From Escherichia coli (GTDB lineage: Bacteria; Pseudomonadota; Gammaproteobacteria; Enterobacterales; Enterobacteriaceae): a stretch of 3,484 bases of DNA. The notes under the pieces were generated by a model. It did no database searches. It was not told the origin of the DNA and saw nothing but the letters and a program-made list of their open reading frames with translations. Below, piece after piece: positions 1 through 3,484 of the stretch (within the stretch, counting starts at the first letter, position 1; the number at the start of each line of letters is the position of its first letter). The position numbers and the translations under genes are program-made. The stretch lies in NCBI RefSeq assembly GCF_003334385.1, contig NZ_QOWN01000093.1; one strand, given 5' to 3'.

Positions 1-1
1 G

Positions 2-940
2 TCAGAAATATACGGCCGGCAAGGTGTGGAGCTGAGCCGTTCACTGCTGTCGGGCTGGGTGGATGCATGCTGCCGGCAGCTGTCTCCGCTGGAAGAGGCG
101 CTTCATGGCTATGTGCTGACTGACGGTAAGCTCCATGCTGATGACACGCCTATCCCGGTGCTGTTGCCAGGCAATAAGAAAACGAAGACCGGGCGGTTAT
201 GGACCTACGTTCGTGACGACCGTAACGCCGGGTCAACGCTGGCGCCGGCGGTGTGGTTCGCTTACAGCCCGGACAGAAAAGGCATCCATCCGCAGACCCA
301 TCTTGCGGGGTTCAGTGGTGTACTGCAGGCGGATGCATACGCCGGGTTCAACGAGCTGTACCGGGATGGCCGGATAACGGAAGCCGCCTGTTGGGCTCAC
401 GCCCGCCGTAAAATCCACGATGTGCACGTTCGCACCCCGTCAGCCCTGACGGAGGAAGCGCTGAAACGGATCGGCGAACTGTACGCCATCGAGGCAGAGA
501 TAAGGGGAATGACGGCGGAGCAGCGCCTTGCCGAACGTCAGTTGAAAACGAAACCGCTGCTGAAATCCCTGGAAAGCTGGCTGCGTGAAAAGATGAAAAC
601 CCTGTCGCGACACTCAGAACTGGCGAAAGCGTTCGCATACGCCCTGAACCAGTGGCCGGCGCTGACGTACTATGCAGATGATGGCTGGGCTGAGACGGAC
701 AATAACATCGCTGAAAATGCGTTGCGGATGGTCAGTCTGGGCCGCAAAAACTACCTGTTCTTCGGTTCGGATCATGGAGGAGAGCGGGGAGCGCTGCTGT
801 ACAGCCTGATCGGGACGTGCAAACTGAACGGAGTGGAGCCAGAAAGCTACCTCCGCTATGTCCTTGACGTCATAGCCGACTGGCCGATAAACCGGGTCGG
901 CGAACTGCTCCCCTGGCGCGTAGCACTGCCGACTGAATAA
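2..940 (+). CDS. IS66-family transposase (TnpC/ORF3-type), C-terminal ~312 codons; 5' end lies upstream of the window
   Basis: The frame is open from the window edge (the track's ATG at 26 is internal; no in-frame stop from nt 2) to TAA at 938-940. The translation carries motifs I recognise from IS66 transposases ([51 protein letters not shown]-terminal LPW). Codon usage is typical enterobacterial. Confidence 0.9.
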
Positions 941-977
941 CACATCCCCGTCAATACGGTTCTTGCTGCACGCTTAC
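941..977. repeat. Candidate right terminal inverted repeat region of the IS66-family element
   Basis: This is the sequence between the transposase stop and the predicted terminus; the complementary strand reads GTAAGCGTGCAGCAAGAACCGTATTGACGGGGATGTG from the end inward. The IR length cannot be confirmed without the left end. Confidence 0.4.
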
Positions 978-1164
978 CCTTCTGTTGCTCACTCAGGGCA
1001 TGTAAATCATGCTCAAACCACGCCCCCTGAGCATCTGTCTGCAGAATCAACCGGCCATGACAGGAAAGGCAGAAACAATGCCGGATATTTCTGCTGAGCG
1101 CAGAGTCGGCACTGATAATGTGCTCACCCGGCGTGATCCCCAGCCCCGTTTTTATACCGTTCAT
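978..1164 (-). pseudogene. 5' fragment (~62 native codons) of a CoiA-N-terminal-like zinc-finger gene, interrupted by the IS66 insertion
   Basis: ATG at 1164-1162 overlaps the TGA stop (1163-1161) of the upstream gene in an ATGA arrangement. The native translation MNGIKTGLGITPGEHIISADSALSRNIRHCFCLSCHGRLILQTDAQGAWFEHDLHALSEQQK repeats the C-x-x-C ... WFEH motif of the upstream paralog. From codon 63 the frame reads into IS terminal sequence, so the track's 102-aa ORF (856..1164) is a chimera. Confidence 0.5.
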
Positions 1165-1544
1165 TCTGCTACCCCCTCCTCACTGAAACGCCCGGTCTGG
1201 CAGTGTGTGCAGTACTGCTCCCCATAATAATCGTGGTGACATTGCCTGCAGTACCAGCTGGCTTTACGTACCACGGGTAAGGCATCCGGGACGAATTGCT
1301 GCAGACGTTTAATCAACCGTATTTCTCTGCGTTCCGGCCTGACATAAGGACATTGCTGCGCGTGCTCCGTCAGCCCGTCGTCAGTGTGTTCAAACCAGGG
1401 CCGTTCGGTGTCGTATTGCGGGTGGTATCTGAGTGCACTGCCGCAAAGGTGGCAGGTGTAGTGGGCATAAGGAGCAGTCTGTGCGGTACGGGCACCGATC
1501 AGACGTCCGTTGCCATCAAGTGCGAGAAAAGATTTTGCGTACAT
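1161..1544 (-). CDS. Zinc-ribbon protein, 127 aa, with CoiA-like N-terminal Cys/His motif and a C-terminal C-x2-C-x10-C-x2-C ribbon
   Basis: Intact ORF from ATG 1544-1542 with an AGGA Shine-Dalgarno-like sequence ~10 nt upstream, ending at TGA 1163-1161. The N-terminus (YTCHLCGSALRYHPQYDTERPWFEH) resembles the Y-x-C-P-x-C-G ... H-F-A-H motif I recall from competence protein CoiA. The C-terminus has CRQCHHDYYGEQYCTHC. Confidence 0.7.
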   Translation of the reverse strand: MYAKSFLALDGNGRLIGARTAQTAPYAHYTCHLCGSALRYHPQYDTERPWFEHTDDGLTEHAQQCPYVRPERREIRLIKRLQQFVPDALPVVRKASWYCRQCHHDYYGEQYCTHCQTGRFSEEGVAE

Positions 1545-1710
1545 AGTATATGTTCCTCTGCGCCAGACGACACGCAGGCAACAGCCGTCCCGGTACGGGC
1601 AGCGTGGTCAGGTGTGAATGGCGGTTTTCAGTTCAGTCTCAGAAGGGAAAATCAGTGTGGTCGCTGTGAACACGTCATCACACTAAGGTCAGATAAGTCG
1701 TCTGTCGGGC

Positions 1711-2280
1711 TCAGCCACGACTGCAGCCAAAATTGCGCTCACCGGTGCCGTAAGCTTTGGTACTCTCCTTCGCCAGATAGTCAGCACGCTCCAGCACCTG
1801 CTGAAAGCCGGTGTCATCATCGCGTTCCAGCCACACCGCCGGCCTGACCGGAAAATGTGCCAGCGTGTCATAACGTCCGGCATCCACTCCCAGGGCACTG
1901 CACCACGCCTGTTTAATCATCCCGGCCAGTGATCCCGGAGCGCGGTAATCGCCGGCACGACACCAGGTATCCCGGTTGACCAGCAGCATCAGGTGATAGT
2001 GTTTTTTACCTTTGCACTCCCCAAACTCCCGGGCCCAGACGTAATGCAGGGTTGTGGGATGCACGCGTTTACCTTCCCGATGCTTACGTTTCTGGTAAGC
2101 GTCGATTCGGGCTTTCAGGGCATTGATGAAGCGGGATATCACAGCTGCGTCCGTTGCTGCCGGTACATCCGGGAGACGCAGGTCAACCCGCAATGCCGTC
2201 AGGCGGGGATGAACATTCAGTGCGTGCCGCACCGTCTCACGAATACGTTGCTGCCAGAAGGGGTTGTATTTGTAGGTCAT
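1711..2280 (-). CDS. YagK/YfjJ-family (inovirus Gp2-like) protein, 189 aa from the ATG at 2280
   Basis: ORF ends at TGA 1713-1711. The ATG at 2280-2278 has GGAG 8 nt upstream, whereas the track's upstream ATG at 2316 has no purine-rich RBS. The translation (MTYKYNPFWQQRIRETVRHALNVHPRLTALRVDLRLPD ... HYHLMLLVNRD ... KAYGTGERNF) matches my recollection of the YagK/YfjJ family of CP4-type prophage-like elements; not verified by search. Confidence 0.75.
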   Translation of the reverse strand: MTYKYNPFWQQRIRETVRHALNVHPRLTALRVDLRLPDVPAATDAAVISRFINALKARIDAYQKRKHREGKRVHPTTLHYVWAREFGECKGKKHYHLMLLVNRDTWCRAGDYRAPGSLAGMIKQAWCSALGVDAGRYDTLAHFPVRPAVWLERDDDTGFQQVLERADYLAKESTKAYGTGERNFGCSRG

Positions 2281-2288
2281 GGTTAAAT

Positions 2289-2308
2289 CTCCGTATGGTT
2301 CATACGGA
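2289..2308 (-). promoter_or_regulatory. Ribosome-binding site overlapped by a perfect 8-bp inverted repeat (TCCGTATG-GTT-CATACGGA) upstream of the Gp2-like gene
   Basis: The arms at 2290-2297 and 2301-2308 are exact reverse complements with a 3-nt loop. The GGAG Shine-Dalgarno (complement of 2289-2292) lies in the 3' arm of the potential mRNA hairpin, 8 nt before the ATG. Confidence 0.3.
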
Positions 2309-2427
2309 ATAACCACGTCGTAAAAAATGCGCAGAACCCCTGAGGTGACCTCCGGCAGGACACTGTCTCAGGCACTCTGTGATAACCCGAACGGTCATCG
2401 CCGGACTGACGATTGAATTCCCGGCGT

Positions 2428-2481: not shown

Positions 2482-2673
2482 GTGATATGCAAAAAGAAGT
2501 GCAGGGACTGTGGTAACGCAATTACTCATAATACAGTATGTTGCCCGTATTGTGGCGCTGTCGACCCCTTCGGTTATTACCGGAAGACCGATCGTCTGCT
2601 CTGTTTACTGACGTTACTGCTGCTGATTCTGGTTACCGTTTCAGGCGTCAGTGTATTTGTACTGTTGCAGTAG
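2482..2673 (+). CDS. Small zinc-ribbon membrane protein, 63 aa (GTG start): N-terminal C-x2-C-x9-CC-x2-C ribbon and C-terminal hydrophobic helix
   Basis: GTG at 2482 is preceded by GGAGAGGGAG (2467-2476) at 5-nt spacing; the track's TTG start at 2413 has no RBS. Translation: (M)ICKKKCRDCGNAITHNTVCCPYCGAVDPFGYYRKTDRLLCLLTLLLLILVTVSGVSVFVLLQ, with stop TAG at 2671-2673. The run of ~23 hydrophobic residues is consistent with one transmembrane segment. Confidence 0.5.
   Translation: MICKKKCRDCGNAITHNTVCCPYCGAVDPFGYYRKTDRLLCLLTLLLLILVTVSGVSVFVLLQ

Positions 2674-3005: not shown

Positions 3006-3484
<479 letters not shown>

Follow-up and report, generated by a model that had tools for sequence, protein, structure and literature searches.

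A conserved non-coding block ahead of the DUF7828 zinc-ribbon genes of Escherichia coli genomic islands is a candidate structured mRNA leader

The stretch of DNA analysed here (the window; 3,484 nucleotides of contig NZ_QOWN01000093.1, Escherichia coli assembly GCF_003334385.1) contains an intergenic spacer of 166 bp between a gene of the YagK/YfjJ 'inovirus Gp2 family' (hereafter Gp2-like) and a zinc-ribbon gene of the DUF7828 family (ZR1), which is coupled to a second zinc-ribbon gene (ZR2). The results showed that the half of this spacer next to ZR1 is occupied by a non-coding block of about 85 nt that is fixed in place and direction with respect to the start codon of ZR1, is under purifying selection and recurs across the Enterobacterales. 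Our favoured reading, which has about an even chance of being right, is that this ZR1-proximal half serves the DUF7828 zinc-ribbon operon as a structured 5′ leader acting in cis (an intercistronic untranslated region) and is a candidate protein-binding site. The coordinates of the features discussed are collected in Table 1.

The distribution of the block was determined by profile searches with nhmmer. One match per locus, just upstream of the DUF7828 start codon, was found in the window and in 26 of the 26 loci that keep the gene start (28 were fetched), and the loci collected later behaved likewise. In all loci keeping the gene start the match lay on the gene strand and ended 4-8 nt before the ATG in model coordinates; the block itself ends about 15 nt before the ZR1 ATG, in constant orientation and at a fixed distance. 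A covariance model matched the window at 1534-1635. Beyond E. coli, one genome per species was searched with the ZR1 protein family, which gave 21 loci, from Salmonella, Serratia, Mixta, Superficieibacter, Trabulsiella, Tenebrionibacter, Siccibacter, Yersinia, Citrobacter, Budvicia, Yokenella, Enterobacter, Enterobacillus and Erwinia. The block is present in at least 14 genera of the Enterobacterales and also on IncHI1B/FIB plasmids of Klebsiella. Within E. coli it was found at 7,488 places in 3,775 of 5,426 complete genomes, with a median of two islands per genome, and its count is about the same as that of the flanking genes, indicating that it is not an independently dispersed repeat. A collection of phage genomes gave no match to the block and viral contigs gave four loci carrying it, which argues against a phage feature. 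A metagenome scan returned only copies at least 90% identical, all of them E. coli-like, which added polymorphism and little diversity. The block has never been annotated, and RefSeq gives no feature in the spacer in any sampled genome, identical loci included.

The block travels with ZR1 and not with the Gp2-like gene. The gene directly upstream differs by locus and may be a YagK/YfjJ gene, a gene for a different 189-amino-acid protein with HUH motifs, an AlpA-family gene or a small zinc-ribbon open reading frame (ORF); the gene downstream is always ZR1. In locus L026 (loci of the comparison carry L numbers) the zinc-ribbon module follows unrelated DNA, and in L116 it follows a gap of about 600 bp. 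In E. coli K-12, which lacks the module and has yfjJ and yagK without zinc-ribbon genes, a canonical intrinsic terminator stands directly after yfjJ (L118, ~7175-7235) and after yagK (L119, ~6250-6322), and no leader block is found there. The absence of the block after these two genes, together with the variability of the upstream gene, disfavours an origin for the Gp2-like protein, one of the roles that had been suggested for the spacer in the first-pass annotation of this DNA.

The conservation of the block was compared with that of its surroundings. Across genera, pairwise identity was 0.7-0.99 in the core columns of the leader, against 0.585, 0.587 and 0.37 at the first, second and third codon positions of ZR1 and 0.27 for the spacer half farther upstream, and the cross-genus conservation of 1548-1635 is clearly above chance. 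Among 37 distinct E. coli copies of the short spacer type, diversity was 0.030 in the core, compared with 0.071 and 0.112 at the third codon positions of the Gp2-like gene and ZR1, respectively. In an alignment of eight E. coli copies the ZR1-proximal 85 nt or so, with the sequence AACTGAAAACCGCCATTCACACCTGACCACGCTGCCCGTACCGGGACGGCTGTTGCCTGCGTGTCGTCTGGCG, were almost invariant. These data show that the block is under purifying selection. The first-pass annotation had called the spacer unusual and possibly functional and had proposed a comparison of its conservation with that of the flanking genes; this comparison proved decisive, and the suspicion was confirmed in that the half next to ZR1 is more conserved than coding sequence. 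Within the block, the core TGCCC-loop-GGGACGG-N5-(C)GCCTGC is universal and is kept even in the most divergent or shortened copies (L012, L020, L022, L114 and L115). In alignment A7, a structure-blind alignment of 27 sequences made from a sequence-only model with the divergent copies included, the heptamer GGGACGG is exact in 19 sequences, and the remaining eight (among them L019, L020, L026, L029, L033 and L114) depart from it at one or two bases; the 20 sequences of alignment A3 all agree in the GAC within it. Variability within the leader is greatest, in the alignments, around the Shine-Dalgarno sequence.

Coding capacity was examined by translating all six frames over 20 relatives, and no frame combined a start with consistent openness. 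One of the sense frames (LPVPGRLxPACRLAVR) is uninterrupted in most copies, and ZR1 is lengthened through it by some gene callers (P0001, P0120). However, its phase relative to the ATG differs by lineage, most copies have no start, a TAG interrupts it in L026, indels of 1-2 nt occur and no synonymous bias is seen. The block is non-coding.

Most individual minimum free energy (MFE) folds of the block gave the same long, irregular hairpin, with three helices (H1, H2 and the apical H3). In the divergent copies L012, L020, L022, L024 and L115 the lower stems are rebuilt from other sequences, for example from CUGGAAGCAGGCA with UGCCUGCU-AUCCAG in L022 and from GCACGAC with GUCGUGC in L012. In alignment A7, 88.6% of the cells were paired, compared with 85.2 ± 0.6 in shuffled alignments; pairs with changes on both sides numbered 6 against 2.1 ± 1.1, further pair types 16 against 11.7, and the covariation score was 0.119 against 0.077, each value being reached by 0 of 500 shuffles. 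Slid registers scored at most 0.044, and a structure-fitted alignment gave 10 double-change pairs. The complementarity of the sequences flanking the apical hairpin was also tested without an alignment; the per-lineage p values were 0.004-0.72, which we combined by Fisher's method over nine lineages to about 3e-4. G-U cells numbered 46 and A-C cells 16, including a conserved U-G pair that is a C-A mismatch on the other strand; this excess leans to the sense strand. The pairing is thus supported by covariation that is significant but modest, and the hairpin structure is moderately supported. The first-pass annotation had picked out a small GC stem, CCCG-GTA-CGGG, in the spacer; this stem is real and forms the apex of the cross-genus hairpin, although it lies at 1589-1599, one base away from the 1588-1598 given there.

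If the block is an mRNA leader, it would be transcribed on the minus strand within the operon mRNA, there being no terminator or convincing promoter between the Gp2-like gene and the leader. The irregular hairpin of about 65 nt would form with its base a few nucleotides upstream of the Shine-Dalgarno sequence and with its bulged apical stem bearing GGGACGG, and it would serve as the recognition site of a trans-acting protein. Such a role appears the likeliest because loops and bulges are conserved as well as stems and because the ribosome-binding site is not sequestered. Once bound, this protein would govern the initiation of translation and/or the mRNA stability of ZR1 and of the translationally coupled ZR2. 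Candidates for it are the two zinc-ribbon proteins, in autogenous control, some other protein of the island, or an RNA-binding protein of the host. Among the roles that the first-pass annotation had offered, that of a processing site or RNA element comes closest to the evidence, in the form of a structured mRNA leader.

Protein-binding translational operators in mRNA leaders include Com-mom of phage Mu, RegA and gene 32 of T4, and the coat-protein hairpins of MS2/Qbeta with their bulged A. Like these, the present element is a conserved hairpin that directly precedes the ribosome-binding site of a gene on a mobile element, with sequence-specific bases in a bulge, a loop and one arm; as in the case of Com, the product that is regulated or encoded next to it is a small protein of the zinc-finger type. 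It differs from them in that no sequence similarity exists, the Shine-Dalgarno sequence and AUG lie outside the hairpin, the hairpin is longer (about 65 nt, three helices) and the binder is here a candidate; it also precedes the zinc-ribbon gene itself and not a separate target gene. A second likeness is to the Rfam cis-regulatory motifs of unknown function, which were likewise found by comparative conservation upstream of one gene family and form a compact covarying hairpin. The element matches none of these, however: a cmscan search of the whole window against the 4,227 models of Rfam 15 at E <=1 returned nothing in 1545-1710, its sole match being an irrelevant one at 3225-3299, and no account of the element came up in literature searches on its sequence, DUF7828 and YagK/YfjJ, the sequence being in none of the papers of the library searched.

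Known modes of leader control were considered individually. No intrinsic terminator or attenuator was found in the spacer, the only terminator-like sites of the window being at 2879-2863 and 1094-1069, and the hairpin is followed by GGUAAGGA or GCAGAGGA, without the anatomy of a U-run terminator. A CsrA-regulated leader would present GGA motifs in hairpin loops, one of them overlapping the Shine-Dalgarno sequence. Two GGA motifs lie about 35 nt apart here, one in the GGGACGG core and one in the Shine-Dalgarno sequence; the upstream GGA lies in the consensus stem with its A bulged, and GGAUGU stands in a loop only in Serratia-type copies. Esr41, a known small RNA of OI-43, was compared and rejected as a different element, having a poly-U terminator and lying between z1181 and z1182.

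Several points weigh against the leader reading. We infer both transcription through the element and its 5′ end, and likewise its action as RNA, the protein binding and the direction of any effect. Thermodynamic support is modest and similar on the two strands, with mean MFE z scores over 21 relatives of -1.44 for the sense and -1.25 for the antisense strand; values of -2.6 to -4.5 are reached in the divergent copies L012, L021 and L022, but the window's own copy has a z of about 0. In a MAFFT alignment of 36 close copies covariation is weak, its 3 double-change pairs being reached by 5 of 500 shuffles. Variants that break a pair on one side are common, such as the A-C haplotypes at an H2 pair in six distinct E. 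coli sequences, and alternative helices (H2a and hp2) also match the consensus. Sequestration of the Shine-Dalgarno sequence, as in a riboswitch or RNA thermometer, was not seen in 25 sequences, its unpaired probability being 0.34 in native and 0.31 in shuffled leaders; the ribosome-binding site is thus not systematically occluded, and no simple switching mechanism is visible.

An alternative that we consider unlikely is that the block is a double-stranded-DNA operator for an island regulator controlling transcription into the zinc-ribbon genes, for example an AlpA-type winged-helix protein, or the loading site of a Q-/AlpA-like antiterminator. The most conserved stretch is indeed a short primary-sequence motif, GGGACGG, kept where the stems change, and many one-sided substitutions break the predicted pairs. 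Moreover, the GGGACG of this heptamer (minus strand) is identical to the AlpA-binding element (ABE) of the Pseudomonas aeruginosa alpB promoter, which was defined experimentally and in which every base pair matters (PMC9371919). The ABEs at the promoters of alpB and PA0807 are where a Q-like processive antiterminator is loaded (PMC7969949, PMC9371919). The loci are alike in being mobile-element-like with a gene called alpA; here the gene directly upstream of the block is of the alpA family in L015, L019, L020, L029 and L120, and most islands have such a gene no more than about 2 kb away. However, the P. aeruginosa ABE sits between the -35 and -10 of a sigma-70 promoter, is part of a motif GGGACG-N5-GGTA (PMC7969949) and has a terminator downstream, all of which is missing in the present element. 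No -35/-10 at the spacing needed for AlpA/Q loading and no terminator to bypass were found, and GGGACG is followed not by N5-GGTA but by GCTGT-TGCC in the window and GCTGA-CGCC in relatives. In addition, the island AlpA, a PF05930 protein of about 70 amino acids, matches small PF05930-type proteins only (PDB 8c3t, TorI) and has no detectable similarity to the P. aeruginosa AlpA chain of 168 amino acids. A partner protein of 197 amino acids has no PDB sequence match, and for the AlpA-adjacent protein of 190 amino acids a Foldseek search with a poor model (pLDDT 56.6) gave nothing significant, listing 7xyb_G only at E=7.9. No link of ZR1 or of this 190-amino-acid protein to P. aeruginosa AlpA was found, and the AlpA lead could not be confirmed. 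Identity over six bases is possible by chance, and a DNA operator would leave the compensatory changes and the fixed distance to the ATG unexplained.

It is also conceivable, though quite unlikely, that the zinc-ribbon and HUH Gp2-like proteins of the island form a machinery for which the GGGACGG hairpin, in the form of RNA or of single-stranded DNA, is the dedicated recognition site. As a variant of this proposal, GGGACG may mark the enterobacterial counterpart of AlpA-type antiterminator loading in a non-promoter context.

HUH enzymes typically recognise hairpins, and the nick sites of Rep proteins usually lie in a hairpin loop. The block could accordingly be imagined as a single-stranded DNA hairpin signal in the replication or transfer of the excised island (a nick or origin, or ssi/sso-like priming) for the HUH Rep-like Gp2/YagK proteins, which we judge very unlikely. 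HUH (HYH) and YxxK motifs are present in the flanking Gp2/YagK proteins, which also match REP_ORF2-G2P weakly, a Gp2-type gene lies no more than about 1.3 kb upstream in every locus examined, frequently with a second one downstream of ZR2, and the stability of the hairpin is about equal on both strands. Like rolling-circle/HUH origins and relaxase nic sites, the element is a GC-rich hairpin near HUH-motif genes in which one strand has a highly conserved stem-adjacent segment. Unlike them, it has a loop that varies in sequence and in length from 3 to 7 nt (GUAC, AUAC, UCCC, GUAGACA, UUAA and others), the place where a Rep protein would usually nick, and no iterons or direct-repeat family were found. 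Its 3′ flank is partly missing in L114 and L115. Its position is tied in distance and orientation to the start codon of ZR1, which is not a Rep gene, and its absence beside K-12 yfjJ and yagK shows that there is no obligate Rep linkage. The excess of G-U over A-C cells also suits RNA better.

An internal promoter and/or an independent small RNA in the spacer, both of which the first-pass annotation had suggested, is highly improbable. A weak sense-strand promoter match, CCGACA-17-TAGTGT (1708-1680, 7 of 12 positions), is present, and its TAGTGT recurs in many relatives; the modules of L026 and L116, which follow unrelated DNA or the gap of about 600 bp, imply that some promoter must exist upstream of the leader in those loci. 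However, the -35 of this match is not conserved in long-type spacers, and a consensus promoter scan found none in the spacer, with no sigma-70 match of at least 8/12 except a TATACT abutting the ATG, which is not conserved. As for a small RNA, no intrinsic terminator follows the block, Rfam offers no match, and the conserved sequence stands at a fixed distance from the start codon and runs directly into the Shine-Dalgarno sequence and ATG, which is the anatomy of a leader and not of a separate gene. A sigma-54 promoter read by eye as CGGGAC-N5-TTGCC was also rejected; its -12 GC and its TT are not conserved in other genera, and no activator gene is present. The remaining explanations can be nearly dismissed: a short upstream ORF or N-terminal extension of ZR1, suggested by the open sense frame and the gene callers, is contradicted by the behaviour of that frame described above, and non-functional hitch-hiking or gene conversion between island copies, for which islands present in several copies per genome give the opportunity, cannot make a non-coding block better conserved, over at least 14 genera, than codon positions 1 and 2 of the gene to which it is linked.

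The rest of the spacer gave a different picture. The first-pass annotation had described the spacer as lacking a convincing ORF, in contrast with the ATGA coupling of the two downstream genes. The exact ORF limits agree with this, no minus-strand ORF of 30 or more amino acids lies inside the spacer, the plus-strand ORFs 1550..1669 (39 amino acids) and 1510..1617 (35 amino acids) are not conserved, and the ATGA overlap of ZR1 and ZR2 was seen at 1161-1164. Among the eight aligned E. coli copies the spacer measured 165-167 bp in the short type, to which the window belongs, 258-264 bp in the long type and 369 bp in one copy with a divergent YagK gene. The pair GTGTGA (1612-1617) and TCACAC (1678-1683) reported earlier is present, but it is not conserved in long-type spacers and is not more than chance, being one of 12 such inverted-repeat pairs of 6 nt within 261 bp. 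The reiterated TCAG was also found, as three copies in 1628-1642, but it is restricted to the short spacer type.

The variable half contains a perfect palindrome, TGTGA-N8-TCACA, none of which occurs in 200 shuffles of the window. It is degraded in L004 and L009 and absent from long-type spacers, and it is lineage-specific and probably no part of the conserved element. A CRP-type site at this place was rejected, since its half-sites match but their spacing is 8 instead of 6, and since it is broken in L004 and L009 and absent from the long type. Long-range pairing of an inverted repeat, 1697-1707 with 1561-1571, was rejected as well; about 0.3 such repeats are expected by chance by our estimate, and the variants of L004 do not compensate.

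Long-type spacers have a second conserved non-coding motif, TGTTTTTTACGYCA-N5-7-CCATAGTGTGACAACCAC-N-ACAGTAACGAC, 130-190 nt upstream of the ZR1 ATG (L005-L008, L010, L011, L013, L026, L114 and L115). It is partly deleted in the short type of the window, where a remnant lies at about 1676-1692, and a similar sequence, CTGTTTTTTACAT, is found upstream of the Gp2-like gene at about 2421-2433 on the minus strand. The motif may be promoter-related, although no good -35/-10 fit was found. In AlpA-adjacent cassettes an unannotated mini zinc-ribbon ORF of about 44 amino acids (MEKRRRTQPQAIPVRWTCPRCRRQYCGARPCPVCF...) lies between alpA and the leader (L120, ~5728-5865; also L014, L016-L018, L023 and L027), and its 3′ end (CAACCGTAACC) resembles the motif AACAGTAACGAC of the non-coding long-type spacers.

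Table 1. Features of the leader, the spacer and the neighbouring genes; positions refer to the window unless a locus is named
Feature	Position	Strand	Basis or remark
Conserved leader block, about 85 nt, ZR1 orientation	1548..1635	-	nhmmer profile matches; core 1560-1624
Core heptamer GGGACGG, near-invariant, 3′ arm of apical hairpin	1585..1591	-	Single occurrence in window
Predicted extended irregular hairpin, about 65 nt	1560..1624	-	MFE folds, pair counts on A7, flank-duplex test
Predicted helix H1, CCGCCA with UGGCGG	1624-1619 with 1565-1560	-	MFE folds
Predicted helix H2, CACGC with GCGUG	1606-1602 with 1575-1571	-	MFE folds
Predicted helix H3 (apical), UGCCCG-UAC-CGGGACG	1601-1586; loop 1595-1593; bulged A 1588	-	MFE folds
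Shine-Dalgarno sequence GAGGA of ZR1	1554..1558	-	Read from sequence
Intergenic spacer, Gp2-like stop to ZR1 start, 166 bp	1545..1710	-	ORF coordinates
Variable, Gp2-proximal half of spacer, short type	1633..1710	-	Alignment indels and replacement; long-type relatives have 90-200 extra bases
Perfect palindrome TGTGA-N8-TCACA	1665..1682	.	Variable half; 0/200 shuffles
ZR1, zinc-ribbon gene (DUF7828 and Zn_ribbon_11)	1161..1544	-	Pfam PF25165 2.3e-31, PF11682 6.3e-8
ZR2, second zinc-ribbon gene, fragment	979..1164	-	ATGA-coupled to ZR1, interrupted by IS66 insertion
YagK/YfjJ 'inovirus Gp2 family' gene (Gp2-like)	1711..2280	-	Pfam PF11726 3.9e-48, weak REP_ORF2-G2P 4e-5
IS66-family tnpC 3′ part (ORF 26..940) and IS end, inserted into ZR2	1-978	+	Leaves ZR2 remnant 979-1164
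189-190-amino-acid HUH-motif proteins upstream of leader	L013:2255-2824; L114:1788-2360; L022:2252-2824		Motifs HYH/HAH and YxxK

The window belongs to an E. coli genomic island of the P4/CP4-like kind, and many complete genomes, that of Nissle 1917 included (locus NZ_CP022686, 1,785.7-1,786.8 kb), have loci with 99.5-99.9% identity to it; CFT073 is another carrier strain. The ORF of the Gp2-like gene runs over 1711..2316, and the RefSeq start is equivalent to 2280; its translation has the HUH Rep-like motifs HYH (HYHLMLLV) and YxxK (YLAKxxxK). HUH-type (HYH or HAH) and YxxK motifs also occur in the unrelated-looking proteins of 189-190 amino acids encoded before the leader in other genera, indicating that the cassette repeatedly pairs Rep-like proteins with zinc-ribbon genes. 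The homologues of ZR1 share the start MYAKSF in all cases. The counterpart of ZR2 in the matching Nissle locus is a RefSeq pseudogene, 'putative zinc ribbon protein, missing C-terminus', which adjoins the tnpC of IS66; ZR2 is intact, with 136-138 amino acids, in L003, L004 and L115. Some islands have further DUF7828-type zinc-ribbon paralogues without a leader before them (L115:1090-1467 and L012:1180-1952), so that the element belongs specifically to the ZR1-ZR2 pair. No functional name came from NCBIfam, PHROGs or PADLOC, and a ZR1 profile found no match among PDB sequences.

Two further genes of the window were noted. A divergently oriented ORF of 63 amino acids at 2482-2673 (plus strand) encodes a zinc-ribbon motif, CxxC...CxxC, with a hydrophobic helix after it; RefSeq lists it as a hypothetical protein only, and it has no family match. 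A truncated gene of the Hha/YmoA family lies at 3006-3146 (minus strand), and related islands have intact or partial hha-like genes at the same place.

Islands with this cassette are among the commonest accessory DNA of E. coli (P4/CP4-like, with AlpA, Gp2/YagK, zinc-ribbon proteins, RadC, Ag43 and toxin-antitoxin pairs). Almost all of their core genes are without known function, and a conserved non-coding element offers a concrete experimental handle on them. The finding corrects the impression that the gap between the Gp2-like and zinc-ribbon genes is an untidy operon junction, and the element indicates a specific and conserved control over how the DUF7828 zinc-ribbon pair is expressed. The 65-nt hairpin with GGGACGG would be a defined bait for the binding factor and is a candidate new RNA motif for Rfam-type catalogues. 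If the hairpin should prove to be the dedicated site of the island's own machinery, it would be a new cis-acting control or mobility signal in the core cassette (AlpA-Gp2) of these islands, which about 70% of E. coli genomes and many other Enterobacterales contain.

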